Shown: positions 1 through 59,173 of the stretch, piece after piece
How positions within the stretch are numbered: position 1 is the first letter of the stretch
How the letters are laid out: every line of letters starts with the position of its first letter
Source of the DNA: an uncultured virus (IMG/VR IMGVR_UViG_3300034418_006598)
Lineage: Duplodnaviria > Heunggongvirae > Uroviricota > Caudoviricetes
Strand: one strand, 5' to 3'
IMG/VR virus record: IMGVR_UViG_3300034418_006598
DNA length: 64,000 nt
Made by a program: the position numbers and the translations under genes
Notes under the pieces: generated by a model
The model's database searches: none
What the model saw: only the letters and a program-made list of their open reading frames with translations
Told to the model about the DNA's origin: nothing

Positions 1-942
1 AAGAAGTTAAGCGACTTACAAAAGATAAAAAGTAGAGCTAAAAAGCATTTAAAGGAAGTTAAAACAGCGCAGGAGCGTGTTGACCGTTTAACTGAAGAAT
101 TAGCTGCGTTAAACAGTACTACTGCCCCTGAGTGGTTTGAGTCTATGGGAGGAAATTTAACGAGGAATATTTCTGACCAGCCTGACATTGTTTTGGGTAA
201 AATTCTTAAAGCATCAGAGTCATTTGGTTTAAATGGGGATGTTATCAGAGAAGTCGGCATGTCTCCAAATGCTGATGGTTCATTTTCTTTTGTTTTGAAG
301 AAAGCAAAAGGTACTACTGCTCATGCAGCAAATGCTGAAAATGATCCTTGGACTAAAGTAGCCCGTATTCTGCAAGCCGATAAAAATAACCCTGATTTAA
401 GTACAGGTGAATTTGTAGGACAGTTTATCACTGACAACTTGAGTACACAGTCAAAGGTTAGATCTTTCTATAACAATATTATTGATCCTAACGATACGAG
501 ATTTAAGAGCTTGACAGCAGATACTCACCACTTTAATGCTTCTCTATTGATGTTGATTGGGTCCGGAAGCAAGATAATGAAAGACTCGTTTTCCCCTAAG
601 GTAACTTCGGGAGGATTTCAGGGGAACTACTGGGCAGCTAGAGAAGCAGCTATTCGGATAGCTGACAAGTATGGACTGAATCCTCGTGAGGTGCAATCTA
701 TTGTTTGGGAAGCGCAGCGTCGTCTGTGGAATTATCCTTCTGATTACAGTAAGAGGAAAAAGAAAGTGATGGATGCTCTTAAGGAGCTGATAGAGCAGAC
801 TCCTAAATCAGAACAAACTGAAGATTGGTATAGACGTACGTTGTGGAATCTGTATGATGAAGTATATGCTGGTGCAGAAGTCCCAGATGTTGCCGTCTTT
901 GATGGTGACCCCGGTGACTTCTTAGTTGATTTGGACAAGTGA
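1..942 (+). CDS. C-terminal part of a large phage protein (5'-truncated) with a possible HhH-GPD/glycosylase-like domain
   Basis: Frame is open from base 1. Motifs KVRSFYNNI, TADTHH and YWAAREAA..IA.KYGLNPREVQSIVWE resemble the D-x-H and Q-x-x-x-W motifs of HhH-GPD-like folds. Confidence 0.5.
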   Translation, partial: KKLSDLQKIKSRAKKHLKEVKTAQERVDRLTEELAALNSTTAPEWFESMGGNLTRNISDQPDIVLGKILKASESFGLNGDVIREVGMSPNADGSFSFVLKKAKGTTAHAANAENDPWTKVARILQADKNNPDLSTGEFVGQFITDNLSTQSKVRSFYNNIIDPNDTRFKSLTADTHHFNASLLMLIGSGSKIMKDSFSPKVTSGGFQGNYWAAREAAIRIADKYGLNPREVQSIVWEAQRRLWNYPSDYSKRKKKVMDALKELIEQTPKSEQTEDWYRRTLWNLYDEVYAGAEVPDVAVFDGDPGDFLVDLDK

Positions 943-52237: not shown

Positions 52238-52977
52238 ATATAGAGTTTCCGCTAGGGCGGTGGTCAGGCATCGGAATTTACGACGATGTTGTAGACAAGG
52301 CCGCATGTCAGAACATTATTGATCTAGTCGAACGTCATTGGAACCGACTAGAAGAAATGCAAGTTCTGAACCCCGGTAAAATGGTCGGTGGGGTGGATCA
52401 ATCTATCAAAAACTCAACTGACATGAACATCTCTGCCGCAATGGGAGACGAACTGTACTCCATGGGAGGAGGCTGGTCTGAACAAGACATTCACGCCGGA
52501 CTGGTAAAGTGCGTTAACCATTACGTCAACCAGTACCCAGGGCTAAGCCAGCAGTGCTTCCCATTACAAGACATGGGTTACCAGTTTCAAAAATACGATG
52601 TTGGCCACGGCAAGTACGACGAACATATCGACGGTGGGCCGTTCGGCAGTTCATTTGACAGAATGCTGGCTGTCATTGTTTACCTTAACGACGTTGACGA
52701 AGGTGGAGAAACTACCTTCACCCGTCAGGAGCTTTCCGTTAAGCCCGTAGCAGGGAGGGTGCTTATTTTTCCGTGTCACTGGCTGTACCCCCACCGTGGT
52801 GAGATTTCGTTTGATAAAGACAAGTACATAGTCACCACGTTTATCATGCAGGAAGACATGAATCATTTGGTTCATCGTCCTGATGAGATGCAAGAGCATT
52901 TCCACGATCACTTCAATGAAGAGGACCTTCCTAACTACCACGGCCCCGGCCACCATCACGATCACGAGCATGAGTGA
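52234..52977 (+). CDS. 2OG-Fe(II) oxygenase (prolyl 4-hydroxylase-like) with His-rich tail
   Basis: YDEHID, RMLAVIVYLNDVDEGGET.F, VKP.AGRVLIFP, YPHRG, KYIVT. Confidence 0.88.
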   Translation: MNIEFPLGRWSGIGIYDDVVDKAACQNIIDLVERHWNRLEEMQVLNPGKMVGGVDQSIKNSTDMNISAAMGDELYSMGGGWSEQDIHAGLVKCVNHYVNQYPGLSQQCFPLQDMGYQFQKYDVGHGKYDEHIDGGPFGSSFDRMLAVIVYLNDVDEGGETTFTRQELSVKPVAGRVLIFPCHWLYPHRGEISFDKDKYIVTTFIMQEDMNHLVHRPDEMQEHFHDHFNEEDLPNYHGPGHHHDHEHE

Positions 52978-53521
52978 AAAAGATTTTAAGTTTCTACAAT
53001 GGGCAGATCAGGGAGCCAAGCTTTTCTCTACCTGTTCTAAAAGCCAGTACATGGCTATCATTGTTGACTCTGAAGGTTTTGTTCTTGGCGTAGGCTACAA
53101 CGGTTCTCCTCGGGGCGCTGCTCATTGCAATCAAGGCGCATGTCCTCGTGCTCTTGCAGGAAGCGATCATAAGTCATCTGACTACAGTGACTGCATCGCT
53201 GTTCACGCTGAAGCTAATGCGTTGCTCCACAGCGACTTTAACGCCCGTGCCCGCATGGGCGGTGTTGCGATGTATGTGAATGGAGAGCCTTGCCTTGAGT
53301 GCGCTAAGCTTATTGCGAACAGCGGCGTCAGGATTGTGTATGGTATTCGGGAAAACCGTCCGGCGCTTTCTAAGGTCGAGGAAGTGTTTGTTGCGTCTAG
53401 CATTGATTTGATTCTGTATGATAGGGATGAAGTTATGCCGGTACATGATACAACTAAGAAGTATTTTGATTCGCATTCATTAAGCCGTTGGAAAGAGTGG
53501 CCCAAAGTAGGTAAGTCTTGA
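52970..53521 (+). CDS. dCMP deaminase family protein
   Basis: STCSK, GYNGSPRG, VHAEANA, PCLECAKLI. Confidence 0.88.
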   Translation: MSEKDFKFLQWADQGAKLFSTCSKSQYMAIIVDSEGFVLGVGYNGSPRGAAHCNQGACPRALAGSDHKSSDYSDCIAVHAEANALLHSDFNARARMGGVAMYVNGEPCLECAKLIANSGVRIVYGIRENRPALSKVEEVFVASSIDLILYDRDEVMPVHDTTKKYFDSHSLSRWKEWPKVGKS

Positions 53522-54412: not shown

Positions 54413-54664
54413 ATGGACGATAACACTGTAGTTAAACTTTTAAATGAGATTCGTTATGCTCAGGTAGTGTCTGGAGTTCACGCTGATGCAATATGTGAAG
54501 CAATCAAGATCATTTCTGATGCTAACGCTATCTGCATTACAGACGGTTCAGGTAAAGAAATTGCTGTAATTGACGGCGATCTTGCTGATGCAATTATTAA
54601 GCAAAGTGTTACCCGTTTCATTACGGATGCTTTAGAGAATCTTATTGAGCATTACAGTGAGTAA
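54413..54664 (+). CDS. hypothetical protein
   Basis: AAGGAG RBS. Confidence 0.65.
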   Translation: MDDNTVVKLLNEIRYAQVVSGVHADAICEAIKIISDANAICITDGSGKEIAVIDGDLADAIIKQSVTRFITDALENLIEHYSE

Positions 54665-55031
54665 TACGGCGAGGACAATTGCTGTCGCCACTGCCGAAAA
54701 GTCTGATCATGATAAGTGGCGTCTAGGCTCTGTTGTATGGAGAGGCGGTTCTGTGCTTTCCACGGGTTTTAATCGTGTGAAGAACGATCCTTCCGTTGTG
54801 GAGGACTCTAAGCATTTCCATTGTTCTATTCATGCTGAAGCGGATGCTTTGCGGAATGCTGGTGATACTCGGGGTGCTAGGTTGTTTGTTGCTCGTGTTA
54901 CTCGGAGCGGCAATTTGGCGCTTGCTAAGCCTTGTTCTCGTTGCATGGAAGCGATTAGGGAGCATGGAATCAAGAGGGTTTACTACACTGATGAGAATGG
55001 TGAGTGGACGTTCTTTAGAGTCTGGCCTTGA
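54657..55031 (+). CDS. second Zn-dependent cytidine/deoxycytidylate deaminase-fold protein
   Basis: LSTGFN, SIHAEADAL, AKPCSRC, GIKRVYYT. Confidence 0.85.
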   Translation: MSNTARTIAVATAEKSDHDKWRLGSVVWRGGSVLSTGFNRVKNDPSVVEDSKHFHCSIHAEADALRNAGDTRGARLFVARVTRSGNLALAKPCSRCMEAIREHGIKRVYYTDENGEWTFFRVWP

Positions 55032-55056
55032 CACACTGCGCCGAGGCTGGTATAAT
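55028..55056 (+). promoter_or_regulatory. consensus sigma70-type promoter driving the ORF-ribozyme-ncRNA unit
   Basis: TTGACA-17nt-TATAAT with TG extension. Confidence 0.85.
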
Positions 55057-55086: not shown

Positions 55087-55374
55087 ATGTTGATTACGAA
55101 GAAGGCAATTATTCAGGCGGCTACTGAGGTTGCGGAGCGTGCCCCGACGGCCCGTAACCGTTCCTCGAAGATGGTGACGTATCGTCATCCTCGTGGCCTT
55201 ATCGGTAATGCGCTGCACGCTGCCGGTATGTCGCCCCGTGAGATTCGTTCTCTGCAGGGCAACCGTAAGTACGATCGTTTCCTGAACCCGGCAGCTACCG
55301 CTTGGGTCCGTGAGGCGAACAGCCGTGCCAACAAGGGCATGGCGTGGGGCGAGGTTGTCGGTACCACCCGATGA
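55087..55374 (+). CDS. basic hypothetical protein upstream of pistol ribozyme
   Basis: AAGGAG RBS; 95 aa, R/K/A-rich. Confidence 0.75.
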   Translation: MLITKKAIIQAATEVAERAPTARNRSSKMVTYRHPRGLIGNALHAAGMSPREIRSLQGNRKYDRFLNPAATAWVREANSRANKGMAWGEVVGTTR

Positions 55375-55380
55375 TCGTAC

Positions 55381-55446
55381 CGTCGTCTGAGCGACGTTAA
55401 ATAGGCTTTAGGCTCAGAGCGTTCCCCACTTCGGTGGGGAGGTGGC
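55381..55446 (+). ncRNA. pistol self-cleaving ribozyme
   Basis: P1 CGTCG/CGACG; loop TCTGAG pseudoknots with CTCAGA; conserved TTAAATAG, TTAGG and GCG; P3 TTCCCCAC-TTCG-GTGGGGAG; G|T cleavage dinucleotide 55442/55443; P2 GCT/GGC. Confidence 0.9.
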
Positions 55447-55615
55447 GTTGAGGCGGGTGGATGGCAGTTCACACCGTAAGACTTTGCCAGTCTTTTCTCT
55501 GGAGGCTGTACGGCTTAGCATTATGACCACTACATGCGTACAAGTGTAGTGGACGTGGAGCAGCTAGTCCCACGGCAAGTGTGAAGGGGTCGCCCCCCAA
55601 CTAGCACCTATCTCC
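55444..55615 (+). ncRNA. multi-stem structured RNA with two potential pseudoknots, raiA-motif-like
   Basis: Closing helix 55450-59/55605-14; TTCACAC/GTGTGAA; CGTA/TACG; AAGAC/GTCTT; CCACTACA/TGTAGTGG; CGTGG/CCACG; GGGG/CCCC; pseudoknots TGGCAG-TTGCCA and GCTAGT-ACTAGC. Confidence 0.6.
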
Positions 55616-55630
55616 GTTACACTTCGTAAC

Positions 55631-55723
55631 ATGTCTGCGTCGATGGCTGACGGCTTGCTGAGTATCAATGTAGAGAAGGTTATTCCGGAAGAGCAGCAGC
55701 CGATTGAGATCGAGATCTCGTAA
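55631..55723 (+). pseudogene. Hsp20 (small heat-shock protein) C-terminal remnant
   Basis: MSASMADGLLSINVEKVIPEEQQPIEIEIS matches the A-x-x-x-DGLL-x-I...PE...I-x-I C-terminus of IbpA/Hsp20. Confidence 0.65.
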
Positions 55724-55740
55724 GTAGAATCAGTATATAC

Positions 55741-55887
55741 ATGAAGAAGTTTAAGAAGTGGCTACGTAAGCTACGTTACGGCGAAGACCCGTTTGAGGGA
55801 TATACATTCTCGCAACCGTTCATCGGTTTGATTACTCAGCCTCCCGGCGAGTACGTCAAGCCACTACCAAAGGATAGAAATGACTGA
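55741..55887 (+). CDS. small hypothetical protein
   Basis: MKKFKKWLRKLRYGEDPF..., 48 aa. Confidence 0.45.
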   Translation: MKKFKKWLRKLRYGEDPFEGYTFSQPFIGLITQPPGEYVKPLPKDRND

Positions 55888-56047
55888 TTCAACTATGGAT
55901 GTCACCGACTTTATCTCTCAAATTGAGGATATGTTGAAGCAGGTTGCGGGCCACACTGTGGTTTCAGCCGCCGATATGCAGAACGGGCTGCTCGATTTGA
56001 TGCAGTCGGCCCGTTCGCTGACCCTATCGTCGGATGAGGAACTGTAA
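55880..56047 (+). CDS. small hypothetical protein
   Basis: AAGGA RBS; MTDSTMDVTDFISQIEDML..., 55 aa. Confidence 0.55.
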   Translation: MTDSTMDVTDFISQIEDMLKQVAGHTVVSAADMQNGLLDLMQSARSLTLSSDEEL

Positions 56048-56050
56048 TTT

Positions 56051-56347
56051 ATGAGGCAATTCTTACGTTACTTCTTACGATGGCAGCTATCCACACCTGT
56101 GCTGCTGTTGTTTATTGCTGTTTACCCTGGCAACATACTGATGAAGGTAGCGTTAGCTAACCTTTTGGTGTCGTTATTGGACTATTTTTCCCGTAAAAGT
56201 ATGAGGCAGCAGAGCAATTCAGGGTTCATGAAAGCCCGCCGAGGCGACGATTTCATCCCCTATACGCTCAGAACTTCCATGCGGAACAAGGCTAAGCGGT
56301 TTAAATTTACCCGTAAATTCCCTATCGAAAGACGAAAAAAGACATGA
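56051..56347 (+). CDS. small membrane protein
   Basis: RYFLRWQLSTPVLLLF hydrophobic N-terminus. Confidence 0.45.
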   Translation: MRQFLRYFLRWQLSTPVLLLFIAVYPGNILMKVALANLLVSLLDYFSRKSMRQQSNSGFMKARRGDDFIPYTLRTSMRNKAKRFKFTRKFPIERRKKT

Positions 56348-56526
56348 TTCTAGTCACCGTCATGCTATCGTTGATCGCATCCGCCATCATTGCTAACGTT
56401 TGGCTGGTTCGGCAGCTAGAAAAAGACCTCTCAGAATGGAATAGAACCTTCCAAGAGAGGCTTGCTCGGCTGGATGAAACATGGGAACAGATCGAAGAAA
56501 AGACCTACTCAATGGACCAAATTTGA
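56344..56526 (+). CDS. TM-anchored small protein
   Basis: ATGA coupling; N-terminal TM plus coiled coil. Confidence 0.55.
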   Translation: MILVTVMLSLIASAIIANVWLVRQLEKDLSEWNRTFQERLARLDETWEQIEEKTYSMDQI

Positions 56527-56874
56527 GGATTTAACTAGTGGCTAAACGTCGTAAAAATACTAACCATGTTTGTAAAGTTCCGCCCGGAACAGAGTGTGTG
56601 GGAGGTAAACTTTACGACAAAGAGAAGAGAAAAGCGAGGCCCCTATGTCCGTGCGGATGCCATCTTCCCCCGGGTACCAAAAAACCAACATGAAGACAAT
56701 TAAGTTAGAAACAAGACCGTCTCGTCCGGTGTGGAAAGAGCGTACCCTGTGGGGTACGGCGGCGGCAGTATTCATGATTTTAAGCATCAAACCCACGTAT
56801 AAAGCTCTACGGAGCGGCTACTACCATATGACCGAAACCAGAAATTTCATCAGAACAGTAGGTAACACCCCCCG

Positions 56875-57144
56875 ATGATTTACGAATTCACTGCCGGAGA
56901 CAACTACTGGTACATAGATACCGACCGCAAATACGTCAAAATTACAGACAAAACCGACGGAACGATCATCAAAGAAACCGACCAGTTAGGGTTGCTAGCC
57001 CAAATTGAGGGCGCTAGAATAGCTGCATATGAGGGCACATACGGCCTGATCGGTATCTCGGCCCCCATCGTAGATAACCATTTCTTCATAGAAGACTGCC
57101 ATACTCGTATCATTTGGCAAGAACCCGAGAAAGCAAACACATGA
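56875..57144 (+). CDS. hypothetical protein
   Basis: 89-aa ORF coupled to neighbours. Confidence 0.55.
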   Translation: MIYEFTAGDNYWYIDTDRKYVKITDKTDGTIIKETDQLGLLAQIEGARIAAYEGTYGLIGISAPIVDNHFFIEDCHTRIIWQEPEKANT

Positions 57145-57527
57145 GTAGTTACTCGCACGAACAGCACCAGCTTACCCTAGACTACGACGCTCACAAACTA
57201 GCCCGCTCCACCGACCCAGAAACGTCAAAGGCTGCGGCTCAGTCCATTTCGCTAGAACTAAAAGACAGCCACCGTTGGATTCTCAACTGGCTTACGGATC
57301 ACGGCCCAGCCACCGACGACGAGATCGCACTCGCAGCAGTAGACGCAGGTCTCATGCCCCGCACCGAGACAGCACGAAGGCAAGTCCGAACCCTACGTGA
57401 AAAACACGAACTTATCGTCCCTGCAGTCGATGAAACCACAGGAACCCAGCTCACATTCGTCAACGCCTCCGGCAGACAAGCTCTCGCCTGGACAGCAAAG
57501 GAGCATAACCATGCTAAGCATTCATGA
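57141..57527 (+). CDS. putative winged-helix DNA-binding protein
   Basis: ARSTDPETSKAAA, ILNWL.DHGPATDDEI, TARRQVRTL, NASGRQA..W. Confidence 0.7.
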   Translation: MSSYSHEQHQLTLDYDAHKLARSTDPETSKAAAQSISLELKDSHRWILNWLTDHGPATDDEIALAAVDAGLMPRTETARRQVRTLREKHELIVPAVDETTGTQLTFVNASGRQALAWTAKEHNHAKHS

Positions 57528-57819
57528 ACCACACGAACTACCCCTCGAATACGAACCCGACAACGCCATCGTAACCATCAGCCTTAGCCGGGAACAGATG
57601 GAAAAGTTTGCTAAAACCGAACTCAAAAGGAACAGTCCAGACTCCGCCACCTACCGCTGGCTACTCACCGAAGCCACCCCCGAAGACCGAGAAAAGATCG
57701 AAAAACTCGTACAAGAAGAGATATGGACCCTCCTCACACAAGGACTAAGCGACTTAGACGACCTCCTCTGCGGACTCTACGAAGCCTACGTCCAAGCCCA
57801 CCTATCCTCAAGAAAGTAA
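57511..57819 (+). CDS. hypothetical protein
   Basis: AAGGAG RBS before ATG 57511. Confidence 0.6.
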   Translation: MLSIHEPHELPLEYEPDNAIVTISLSREQMEKFAKTELKRNSPDSATYRWLLTEATPEDREKIEKLVQEEIWTLLTQGLSDLDDLLCGLYEAYVQAHLSSRK

Positions 57820-57909
57820 ACAACCCACCCCGAATAAACGACCGCTAAACACCTCCACGATACAAAAACCCACCAAAGCACCCATTTACACTATACAGAA
57901 ACACTCGAT

Positions 57910-57996
57910 ATGGACCCTGTAGTAAAAGCATACACACTCGTATTCGGTGCAATCGTCCTCATGATGCTGATAGACCTAACCCTACGAGACCGGTAA
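57910..57996 (+). CDS. 28-aa single-TM microprotein
   Basis: MDPVVKAYTLVFGAIVLMMLIDLTLRDR. Confidence 0.4.
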   Translation: MDPVVKAYTLVFGAIVLMMLIDLTLRDR

Positions 57997-58084
57997 CCAC
58001 TTGACACACCCCCCAAACCCAAACTAAACTAACAACCAAAGAGCCTACTAATACTACCCCACCAACAGTATAAGAAAGGCCAAA

Positions 58085-58468
58085 ATGCGAAACCCCCTCC
58101 ACCACCTAACCAAAACCCACACAACCGATACACAACCACACCACCCCCAACCAGACACACAAACACCCCCCAAAAACACCCCAAAACCCCACTGGACCAA
58201 CCAAGCAAACTGCCGAAACAAAACACATCTCATGTTCCCCAAAGAACACAAAGACCTCTCCTACATTAGTGAGGCACGACGTTTATGCAGGGCGTGTCCG
58301 GTCCGTAGGGAGTGTTTGGAGTATGCGTTGGAGTTTCCGGTTTCGGATCAGCATGGTGTGTGGGCTGGGTTGACTCCTAGGCAGTTGGCTGCGGAGGGTC
58401 AGAGGCGTGGGGTTCGTGCGGAGCGGTTTACGTTGGCTCAGGTTTGGTCTCGTTTGTATCGGCAATAG
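58085..58468 (+). CDS. whiB: WhiB family Fe-S transcription factor
   Basis: W..QANC...MFP...ARRLCRACPVRRECLEYAL...HGVWAGLTPRQ; GAAAGG RBS. Confidence 0.92.
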   Translation: MRNPLHHLTKTHTTDTQPHHPQPDTQTPPKNTPKPHWTNQANCRNKTHLMFPKEHKDLSYISEARRLCRACPVRRECLEYALEFPVSDQHGVWAGLTPRQLAAEGQRRGVRAERFTLAQVWSRLYRQ

Positions 58469-58507
58469 TTGCTGTGGTTGTATAGCTGGGGGATATACAG
58501 TATTGTT

Positions 58508-59173
58508 ATGGTTGATTCTAATAGGTTGTCGAGAGAGTTTTTGGCTGAGCGGGATGCCCGGATTTTTGGTTTGAAGAAGTCGGGTTTGTCGAATCAGGAG
58601 ATTGCTCGTCGTTTTGATATGACGGCGGCTTCTGTTGCTGCTGCTACTCGGCGGCAGTTGGGTCGGCTTAATAGTGAGGCTTTTCTTTCGTATCCTGAGG
58701 TGCTTAGGTTGGAGCTGGAGAGGTTAGATGAGCTTCAGAAGGGCCTGTGGCCGTTGACTCAGTTCCGTCGGGAAGTGTTAGATGATGGTTCTGAGGTGAT
58801 GTTGGAGCCGGATCAGAACGCTGTTCGTACGGTGTTGGGTATTATGGATCGTCGTGCGAAGCTTTTGGGTATGAATGTGGAGCGTGCTGTGGTTGAGTTG
58901 CAGATGGATGGGGGTGGTGGGGATACCATTGATGTTCGGAGTAGTTTGGCTGGTGCTGCTGGTGGTGAGGTGTTGGAGACGGGGGAGGCTGCGAAGGCGG
59001 AGTCGTTGCAGTTGTTGGAGTTGATGGCTTCGTCTGGGGTTTTGGATGAGGGTGTTGTTGGGGATATTTTGTCTAGTGTTGAGGAGCGTGGTGGTTTGGA
59101 GGAGGATAGGGTTGAGTTGGATGATTTGGATGTTGTTGATGCTGAGATTGTTGATGAAAGTGAGGATTTGTGA
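58508..59173 (+). CDS. HTH protein resembling actinophage terminase small subunit
   Basis: ERDARIF.LKKSGLSNQEIARRF HTH; LELERLDELQ..LWP; AVRTVL.IMDRRAKLLG; TACAGT 6 nt before ATG. Confidence 0.6.
   Translation: MVDSNRLSREFLAERDARIFGLKKSGLSNQEIARRFDMTAASVAAATRRQLGRLNSEAFLSYPEVLRLELERLDELQKGLWPLTQFRREVLDDGSEVMLEPDQNAVRTVLGIMDRRAKLLGMNVERAVVELQMDGGGGDTIDVRSSLAGAAGGEVLETGEAAKAESLQLLELMASSGVLDEGVVGDILSSVEERGGLEEDRVELDDLDVVDAEIVDESEDL

Follow-up and report, generated by a model that had tools for sequence, protein, structure and literature searches.

Pistol (RF02679) is a class of self-cleaving ribozymes known since 2015. Its association with phages has already been published (Harris 2015, PMC4604425), and no biological role is assigned to the class in the sections of PMC4604425, PMC6154101 and PMC6765202 that we consulted. 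Here, we describe a pistol ribozyme and the RNA directly behind it in a stretch of 64,000 nucleotides of DNA from an uncultured virus of the Caudoviricetes (IMG/VR record IMGVR_UViG_3300034418_006598). This whole stretch is referred to as the window, and coordinates are window positions unless another locus is named. The ribozyme at 55381-55447 is a standard member of its class, and its distinctive property is the fusion to one structured RNA in all eight versions of the locus that we recovered. We think it probable, with moderate confidence, that the stretch behind the ribozyme belongs to a class of phage non-coding RNA not catalogued before, which forms a single module with the pistol and is matured by self-cleavage.

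This arrangement has parallels among described RNAs. The tRNA cluster of phage T4 includes two RNAs, species 1 and 2, that are small, stable and structured, that have no known function, and that are co-transcribed and co-processed with the tRNAs. Compared by description only, they resemble one relative of the RNA reported here (L039), in which two tRNAs follow directly after the RNA; however, the ends of the T4 RNAs are made by host RNases and not by a ribozyme. GOLLD and ROOL are also phage-encoded, elaborately folded, of unknown function and often located beside tRNA genes, but they are 3-5 times larger than the RNA described here (RF02032; PMC5737381; bioRxiv 10.1101/2024.12.08.627333). Neither of them matches the new RNA in sequence or by model; GOLLD (RF02032) was not detected in the window with the gathering threshold or, around the locus, at E<=10. 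In the case of the Theta (HDV-like) ribozymes found by phage tRNAs, a small self-cleaving ribozyme similarly defines one end of an adjacent phage non-coding RNA, but the ribozyme is of another class, the cargo is a tRNA and the phages are gut phages (PMC10879173). Further conserved structures near ribozyme-associated genes have been reviewed as showing no cleavage and as having unknown functions (PMC6765202). A full-text literature search found no report that links pistol to a downstream structured RNA and, likewise, none that links a pistol ribozyme to GOLLD. The remaining system for comparison is the raiA motif, to which a first-pass annotation of this DNA had likened the RNA, and which is treated separately below.

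A pistol ribozyme and the RNA behind it

A scan of the window at the Rfam gathering thresholds returned three matches, i.e. two tRNAs and one pistol. We assigned a locus to the pistol class if it scored at least the RF02679 cut-off of 34.5 bits over the full model length, and the locus in the window scores 73.1 bits over the full length. The pseudoknot between the P1 loop and the internal strand, which we used as a further criterion, is kept by covariation (UCUGAGC/GCUCAGA in the window, UCAUGGC/GCCAUGA in L039, both read by eye). The ribozyme starts 6 nt past the stop codon of an upstream open reading frame (ORF), P0001, and its end falls within the interval 55444-55615, for which the first-pass annotation had described a compact structured RNA. 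The start of that interval lies in the last 4 nt of the pistol, and both the pistol and one of the loop-loop pairings (K2, below) had been missed. In the env25 pistol, the cleavage site is G53-U54 in the P3-P2 linker (PMC6154101). Based on the conserved GU of this linker in the Rfam alignment, the cut in the window is predicted at G55442|U55443. The 3' product would begin at U55443 with a 5'-OH and, thus, one base ahead of 55444.

Rfam 15 holds no family for this RNA, as judged from scans of the window and of loci L057, L066, L070, L053 and L046. We found eight distinct versions of it (the window, L066, L041, L044, L057, L070, L109 and L039), spread over 11 IMG/VR contigs and metagenome contigs. 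In IMG/VR, an exact pistol-core pattern returned 22 loci, three of which carry the RNA, all identical to the window. A protein search of IMG/VR with P0001 returned 16 loci, nine of them with the RNA (three identical, five diverged, L041-L045, and the more distant L039); among the seven without it, two have a pistol followed by a dCMP-deaminase-like gene and five have no pistol. A pattern covering pistol and junction returned 12 metagenome loci, nine with the RNA, which added the versions L057 and L066. With a pattern from the region of hairpin H3, nine of 15 IMG/VR loci contain the RNA, including the new L070, which is cut by the contig end, and the other six are chance matches in coding sequence. 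Finally, a junction pattern returned 15 IMG/VR loci, two with the RNA, namely the L070 contig again (L097) and the new L109; the other 13 match neither pistol nor the model R2 introduced below.

A pistol lies immediately 5' of the RNA in all eight versions. Rfam matches cover seven of these (the window, L057, L070, L066, L109, and the L039 and L041 contigs in the form of L053 and L046, respectively), and for the eighth, L044, the pistol stretch reads the same as that of L041. R1, a covariance model of the RNA, scores the copy in the window at 205.6 bits over 55443-55611. Across 40 sources (156,794 bases), it finds family members only, together with one noise match at E 5; L039 is reached only at E 0.15 with filters off. 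R2, a model of the 3' domain built without L109, retrieves L109 at E 3.4e-9. R1 found no match in the 151 genomes of one actinobacterial class that were searched and R2 none in three genomes, neither search having a positive control within the genomes. A 22-nt degenerate pattern, run against one genome per prokaryote species, gave eight chance matches, none of which matches R1.

Between 55444 and 55615 there is no plus-strand ORF of more than 35 aa and stops occur in all three plus-strand frames, in agreement with the first-pass annotation, which had seen no credible ORF. Comparison of the versions shows that the helices and two of the three tertiary pairings covary (Table 1). In a hand alignment of the eight sequences, 389 of 398 cells are canonical, and double changes are present at 34 of the 54 positions across the nine named helices and pairings. 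Because this table was fitted to the structure, the counts were repeated on alignments made by MAFFT only. In alignment A5 (whole RNA, four close sequences), 98.0% of the cells are paired versus 37-43% when the partners are slid, with seven double-change pairs versus 0-2. The corresponding values are 97.2% versus 30-56% and five versus 0-1 pairs in A10 (3' domain, six sequences), and 93.4% versus 31-46% and eight versus 0-4 pairs in A12 (5' domain, four sequences). For the four close sequences, RNAalifold recovers upper H1, H4, H5 and H6 as well as a helix that joins the 5' leader to the sequence following H3.

In the 5' domain, the loops of H1 and H2 are complementary and form the pairing K1, which reads UGGCAG/UUGCCA in the window and CGGCAA/UUGCCG in L057, L070, L109 and L039. 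The window-type versions have U-A as one outer pair, where these four have C-G; at the other outer pair, the window type has G.U (U.U in L041 and L044) and these four A-U; the four central pairs are invariant. The linker between H1 and H2 is 1-3 nt in the window-type versions, L057 and L039 and ~11 nt in L070 and L109, where it lies mostly within an extended H2 stem. The two stems are unequal and variable in length (8/6, 8/5 and 9/3 bp), and L057, L070, L109 and L039 have an additional variable hairpin between H2 and H3. The loops of H3 and H4 form K2, which has a palindromic GUAC core and six perfect pairs that are invariant in seven of the eight versions; L039 has different loops, in which four of five pairs are complementary. 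Because K2 is mostly conserved with little covariation, we consider the comparative support for it as moderate. H4 has double changes at four of nine pairs among the four close sequences alone, and is also predicted by RNAfold and RNAalifold.

In the 3' domain, the loop of H5 pairs with the 3' tail to form the pseudoknot PK. Double changes at four of its six pairs are seen in the hand table as well as in A10, and L109, which lies outside R2, has GAUAGC/GCUAUC. In H6, the loop-proximal G-C becomes U-A in L039 and the rest is invariant; (G/U)AA is conserved before this hairpin and one A after it. The small hairpin at 55616-55630 is missing in L041, L044, L057, L109 and L039.

We tentatively add P1, a helix that closes the 5' domain. 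All eight versions have the same first three pairs (G-C, C-G, U-A); the fourth is U-A in four of them and a U.U mismatch in the four of the window type. In L039, one additional A and one additional U, both read from the sequence outside of the hand table, match each other and could form a further A-U pair. RNAalifold favors another register, 55447-52 with 55514-19, and the register of this weak helix is uncertain. The first-pass annotation had counted seven compatible helices with two loop pairings, UGGCAG 55462-67 with UUGCCA 55484-89 and GCUAGU 55563-68 with ACUAGC 55600-05. Both pairings are present at these positions and, as for the compact fold in general, are kept with compensatory changes in the eight versions; the count of seven is compatible with six hairpin helices plus P1, the weak member. 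A candidate CCGUA/UACGG pairing (55474-78 with 55509-13) was rejected; it competes with H1 and K2 and is lost in L041.

Table 1. Features at the pistol locus of the window and the evidence for each; numbers in brackets count from U55443 = 1.
Feature	Position	Strand	Evidence
Sigma-70-type promoter-like site, TTGACA-17-TATAAT, TG before -10	55028-55056	+	12/12 consensus, pattern match only
P0001, 95-aa ORF	55087-55374	+	PHROG 572, E 6.7e-7, function unknown
Pistol self-cleaving ribozyme	55381-55447	+	RF02679, 73.1 bits, E 2e-11, model positions 1-68 of 68
Predicted pistol cleavage site G55442|U55443	55442-55443	+	Conserved GU of P3-P2 linker, Rfam alignment
Structured RNA core, ~163 nt	55443-55605	+	R1 and 8 distinct homologs
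P1, closing helix (tentative)	55445, 55446, 55448 with 55519, 55518, 55517	+	Hand table
H1, hairpin, loop UGGCAG, A55473 bulged	55454-61 with 55468-76 (12-19 with 26-34)	+	Double changes 7/8 (hand table), 5/8 (A12)
K1, loop-loop pairing	55462-67 with 55484-89 (20-25 with 42-47)	+	Double changes 1/6 (hand table)
H2, hairpin, loop UUGCC	55478-83 with 55489-94 (36-41 with 47-52)	+	Double changes 5/6 (hand table), 3/6 (A12)
H3, hairpin, loop UGUACG	55503-06 with 55513-16 (61-64 with 71-74)	+	Double changes 3/4 (hand table)
K2, loop-loop pairing, UGUACG/CGUACA	55507-12 with 55537-42 (65-70 with 95-100)	+	Double changes 2/6 (hand table)
H4, hairpin, loop contains CGUACA	55527-35 with 55544-52 (85-93 with 102-110)	+	Double changes 8/9 (hand table)
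H5, hairpin, conserved GGAG on 5' side	55554-58 with 55570-74 (112-116 with 128-132)	+	Double changes 3/5 (hand table); RNAalifold
PK, H5 loop with 3' tail	55563-68 with 55600-05 (121-126 with 158-163)	+	Double changes 4/6, 97% of cells paired (A10)
H6, hairpin	55586-89 with 55595-98 (144-147 with 153-156)	+	Double changes 1/4 (hand table)
Small hairpin GUUAC..GUAAC, lineage-specific 3' appendage	55616-55630	+	Read from sequence, also present only in L066
30-aa ORF, C-terminal end of Hsp20-type small heat-shock protein	55631-55723	+	PHROG 432, E 3.4e-5, profile 120-147 of 148

Proposed maturation and possible roles of the RNA

The genes on either side of the module differ between versions. Upstream, a P0001-type gene is present in the window, L066, L041, L044 and L039, and an unrelated 71-aa ORF in L057 and, as judged by the last codons of that ORF, also in L070. 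Downstream, the window has the remnant of an hsp20 gene, while L041, L044 and L066 have a TGnTATAAT-like sequence (by eye) followed by a secreted-protein-like gene; a promoter scan of L041 gave no plus-strand site at this sequence. In L039, a tRNA gene begins 3 nt after the RNA. Thus, comparison of the loci shows a portable module, in which pistol and RNA travel together and the neighbors change. The pistol can also occur without the RNA: in the relatives L006/L013, the upstream part is 84% identical and the pistol is the same, and all similarity is lost exactly at 55443. In the corresponding loci L038/L040 (= L013/L006), upstream gene and pistol are kept, and a dCMP-deaminase-like gene has its AUG only a few nt behind the ribozyme. 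Because the pistol there directly precedes this AUG, the same pistol heads either the RNA or an mRNA among the relatives of this phage. As a separate observation, in L109 (~505-560, minus strand) the upstream ORF, by eye, apparently enters the pistol and stops at the UAA of a conserved AUAAA stretch.

Based on these data, we propose the following course of events. The module would be transcribed together with P0001 from the promoter-like site upstream of this gene; in L041, an 11/12 site of this type is found at the same relative place. The pistol, identified as a ribozyme by its family match, would then cut at the predicted site, giving the mRNA of the upstream gene a 2',3'-cyclic phosphate and the RNA its 5'-OH. 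The freed GGC, formerly in pistol P2, might pair with 55517-19 and close the 5' domain. Because P1 would use the same GGC as pistol P2 does before cleavage, the two helices would be mutually exclusive. In the step for which covariation provides the evidence, the ~163-nt RNA would fold as the complementary-loop pairs H1/H2 and H3/H4 and the 3' pseudoknot made up of H5, PK and H6. Its 3' end may be set by whatever follows, as the tRNA gene directly behind the RNA in L039 suggests for one relative. The outcome would be a discrete, stable, trans-acting RNA that serves as a protein-binding scaffold or decoy or that associates with itself. We favor a role in trans over regulation of a neighboring gene because both neighbors vary, and place a stable scaffold or decoy RNA ahead of a cis-acting 5' leader, which ranks second. 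Since 5'-end-dependent RNases prefer a 5'-monophosphate, the 5'-OH end could add to the stability of the RNA.

If this model is correct, the fusion of pistol to one defined RNA in eight of eight versions would point to a natural job for this ribozyme class, and one that is directly testable. The RNA itself, with ~163 nt, many tertiary pairings and a place outside Rfam 15, is a tractable target for structure determination and a handle on what phage non-coding RNAs do to actinobacterial hosts.

Several points weigh against a self-cleaving module that releases a new trans-acting RNA. The role in trans is purely inferred, and the family is small, with eight distinct sequences in four lineages. The cut site is derived from the family consensus, and pistols of the L041 type score lower (53.8 bits) and, in the standard register, form a poor P2. 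The eight-sequence table was aligned by hand to the structure and is, hence, biased in its favor; MAFFT and Infernal misalign L039 as well as H2 of L057 and L070, and sub-alignments were used next to the hand table because the alignments of all versions are unusable for these parts. K2 and the center of K1 are conserved and do not covary. The single sequence has a minimum free energy (MFE) of -63.6 kcal/mol (z = -1.61; z = +0.46 for the minus strand), which does not exceed chance, as 16 of 200 shuffles do equally well. Nested MFE folds give all H4 pairs in only five of seven sequences and the other helices in fewer, as would be expected because the RNA is pseudoknotted. In a survey of expression across 55087-55900 (814 nt), which covered 18 runs including 15 RNA libraries, each with a small share of sampled words, contigs from four metatranscriptome runs cover 55089-55390 and 55634-55900 only and nothing in 55395-55618, which is uninformative either way.

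A further such point concerns the 3' side. The small plus-strand ORFs at 55631-59173 follow the RNA without an intervening promoter- or terminator-like site, and for this reason the RNA in the window could stay joined to the mRNA of these genes. It would then act in cis as a 5' leader, which either protects the downstream mRNA from 5'-end-dependent decay as a structured 5'-OH cap or sets its translation, and the relatives L038/L040, with the same pistol directly before a start codon, agree with such an arrangement. Nevertheless, we regard a cis-acting leader as improbable, albeit as the strongest of the competing explanations. The element downstream differs in each lineage (hsp20 remnant; TGnTATAAT-like sequence and gene; tRNAs; AU-rich spacer), RNase P would detach the RNA from what follows in L039, where the tRNA is 3 nt away, and ~160 nt with three tertiary pairings far exceed what a protective hairpin needs.

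For the preferred trans-acting RNA, it is doubtful, but worth considering, that K1 and K2 act between molecules, so that after the pistol cut an RNA-only head-to-head dimer or larger complex forms via reciprocal kissing loops. The short H1-H2 linker together with unequal, variable stems, which are geometrically awkward within one molecule, and the palindromic GUAC in K2 hint at this possibility. In a reciprocal dimer, each column sums H1, K1 and H2, and the inequality of the stems is irrelevant. If true, assembly by kissing loops would place the RNA beside OLE, ROOL and GOLLD, which self-assemble, as their counterpart in miniature, and cleavage by the ribozyme would be the switch for its maturation.

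Comparison with raiA and remaining alternatives

Like the RNA described here, raiA (RF03072; Weinberg 2017, PMC5737381; He 2026, PMC12968392) is compact, with several helices in ~110-250 nt and two tertiary pairings of the pseudoknot type, has no known function and belongs to the actinobacterial sphere. The first-pass annotation had suggested either a phage-borne minimal raiA variant or a new related RNA class. Phage location and a class outside Rfam 15 are borne out; a place in the raiA family is not. With an RF03072 match of at least 101.3 bits as the criterion for membership, no match was obtained at E<=10 for 55300-55800, where a permissive Rfam scan gave the pistol and four noise matches, none at E<=10 in G001, a record with an identical copy of the locus, and none at E<=5 in L057, L066, L070, L053 and L046. 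As a positive control, RF03072 was run on 41 genomes of one actinobacterial class and exceeded the cut-off in 19 of them (108-165 bits; three of the 19, G044, G032 and G040, are unpublished, and leaving out all four unpublished genomes gives 16 of 37). In the reverse direction, the model of the new RNA had no match at the raiA sites when five raiA loci were searched. Because RF03072 finds no member, the control works and the reverse search is empty, we reject raiA membership.

The two RNAs also differ in architecture. In raiA, a conserved closing stem, P1, pairs the 5' and 3' ends (He 2026, PMC12968392); no conserved helix joins the two ends across the eight versions of the new RNA, in which the 5' end is predicted to be made by the pistol and the 3' tail pairs with the H5 loop instead of the 5' end. 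raiA has P3a/P3b with an asymmetric loop, and none is conserved in the new RNA. Its pairings are PK1 between the P3b loop and a linker and a PK2 of 2-4 bp, in contrast to the loop-loop and hairpin-loop/3'-tail pairings found here, and it is a chromosomal gene, unlike the phage-borne RNA fused to a ribozyme. When the Rfam raiA structure is threaded onto the window, it yields at most four P3a-like pairs, which are broken in L041 and L057; the P3a-equivalent sequence is occupied by the covarying H1 and H2, and the partner of the loop is another hairpin loop.

The first-pass annotation had also pointed to collinear blocks that look similar in raiA RNAs and this stretch. Real actinobacterial raiA sequences indeed contain short blocks similar to those in the window and in the same order, but the similarity is restricted to the window and L066 and the blocks have non-equivalent structural roles. 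An nhmmer search of the whole window with a hidden Markov model (HMM) of five actinobacterial raiA sequences gave 55525-55590 as the best match (8.2 bits, E 0.04 in 130 kb). Restricted to the family, the search gives 8.4 bits (E 2.9e-4) for the window and 5.7 bits for L066; 8.4 bits is reached by none of 5000 dinucleotide shuffles (maximum 6.5). No alignment is reported for L041, L044, L057 or L039, even at E up to 1e9. The HMM alignment is ungapped, pairs non-equivalent elements and does not preserve structure. For instance, GUAGUGG is the 3' strand of H4 in the new RNA and lies inside P6 in raiA. The raiA-like blocks vary freely within the new family, as in the case of the covarying 3' strand of H4. 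The resemblance appears to be specific to one lineage (the window and L066).

In principle, this resemblance could stem from a host raiA that was captured by the phage, reduced, and now mimics part of raiA, e.g. to engage its protein partners. The HMM match at 55525-55590, unmatched by the shuffles, and the order of the short blocks are in line with this explanation. The same is true for the hosts, which are probably Actinobacteria, where raiA is common (the 19 of 41 genomes of one class), because the window encodes a WhiB-like regulator and a major capsid protein that has its closest relatives in Brevibacterium and Gordonia phages (47-48% identity). Even so, we consider this origin quite unlikely: the model searches are empty in both directions, the similarity stops at the window and L066, the blocks are unconserved in the family and sit in non-equivalent helices, the four P3a-like pairs break in L041 and L057, and no terminal P1 joins the ends.

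It is very unlikely that the new RNA is itself catalytic, i.e. a new self-cleaving or ligating ribozyme class beside the pistol. Precedent exists, in that new self-cleaving classes including pistol were discovered as conserved structures located close to other ribozymes (PMC6765202, PMC4604425), and the fold is compact and pseudoknotted with conserved nucleotides in loops and junctions. On the other hand, Rfam gives no ribozyme family other than pistol in the window or, at E<=10, at the locus, the other conserved structures near ribozymes failed to cleave when tested (PMC6765202), and the RNA has no sequence sign of a cleavage site. Finally, it is hardly credible that the stretch, which lies between the pistol and the truncated hsp20, has no function of its own and is filler from recombination or a fragment of a decayed gene, since its location at a mosaic junction beside a gene remnant and its unremarkable single-sequence folding energy stand against compensatory changes conserved in eight versions behind different genes and before different sequences, indels that are not in codon steps, and stops in every frame.

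Neighboring genes and other pistol loci

P0001 matched no Pfam family, and relatives of it are found in 16 IMG/VR loci. In some relatives without the pistol, the slot behind the P0001-type gene is filled differently, as seen by eye: in L033/L035 (2786-2960) by hairpins and a tRNA-like stretch, and in L034, L036 and L037 by hairpins followed by a T run. On the other side of the RNA, the 30-aa ORF also matches Pfam PF00011 with 20.9 bits (cut-off 20.8) over profile positions 73-102 of 102, and the N-terminal two thirds of Hsp20 are absent upstream of 55631 in any frame. One contig from an RNA run is identical over 55634-55689 and then diverges, its next 194 letters upstream being unlike those of the window, which would be expected if hsp20 is intact in a relative. 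The 30-aa ORF is a gene remnant and marks the junction of the inserted module on the 3' side. A coding frame from 55442 was rejected; it has two in-frame TAG codons, its Hsp20 match (with TAG read as Q) is confined to the last 35 residues, and the tRNAs in the window are Leu(taa) and Ile(tat) and not suppressors. A split or intron-bearing hsp20 was likewise rejected, the upstream ORF P0001 not being Hsp20-like.

Pistol ribozymes also occur before other RNAs. In L007, L010, L012, L014, L015, L016, L020, L023 and L024, a pistol with a long P3 insert is followed, ~0-330 nt past the core, by a second conserved and uncatalogued RNA, with a hairpin CUGUGAAGGA..ACACAG and then AAACAAAAAACCGC. This RNA has no Rfam match at the gathering score, and GOLLD was not found behind the pistol in any of five whole records (those of L007, L012, L014, L015 and L024). 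A third pistol-headed RNA is present in L017 (IMG/VR) and in L061 and L063 (metagenome); it has the same GCGUUG leader followed by AUCAUCGACGGAUG.., is ~150-190 nt long, ends at a tRNA gene and is unmatched by R1 and R2. In L005 (700-1440), a pistol of 74.7 bits is followed ~300 nt later by a GOLLD match of 167.7 bits that is cut by the end of the locus.

In addition, pistol-core matches lie at or just after a stop codon in cultured Gordonia, Microbacterium and Curtobacterium phages, i.e. L001 (GTE7), L027 (Austin), L002 (Count), L003 (Pippin15), L028 (JoyLin) and L029 (Eevee). Those of GTE7, Count and Pippin15 score 46-51 bits in Rfam, and those of Austin, JoyLin and Eevee were found by BLAST alone. 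Each precedes an unannotated gap of ~140-420 nt that has no R1 or R2 match, and the ribozyme is annotated in none of the six records. A similarity of Pippin15 to the new RNA in a first MAFFT alignment was rejected, being the 3' strand of the long pistol P3 of this phage. Overall, pistol loci of these collections that lack the new RNA precede a tRNA, a GOLLD RNA or other undescribed folds, which suggests that phage pistols generally make RNA 5' ends.

Outside of the module, the window contains two dCMP-deaminase-like ORFs within 2 kb, at 52883-53521 and 54645-55031 (PHROG 174, E 1.9e-32 and 3.4e-24), which adjoin a 2OG-Fe(II) oxygenase-like ORF and a thioredoxin-like ORF.

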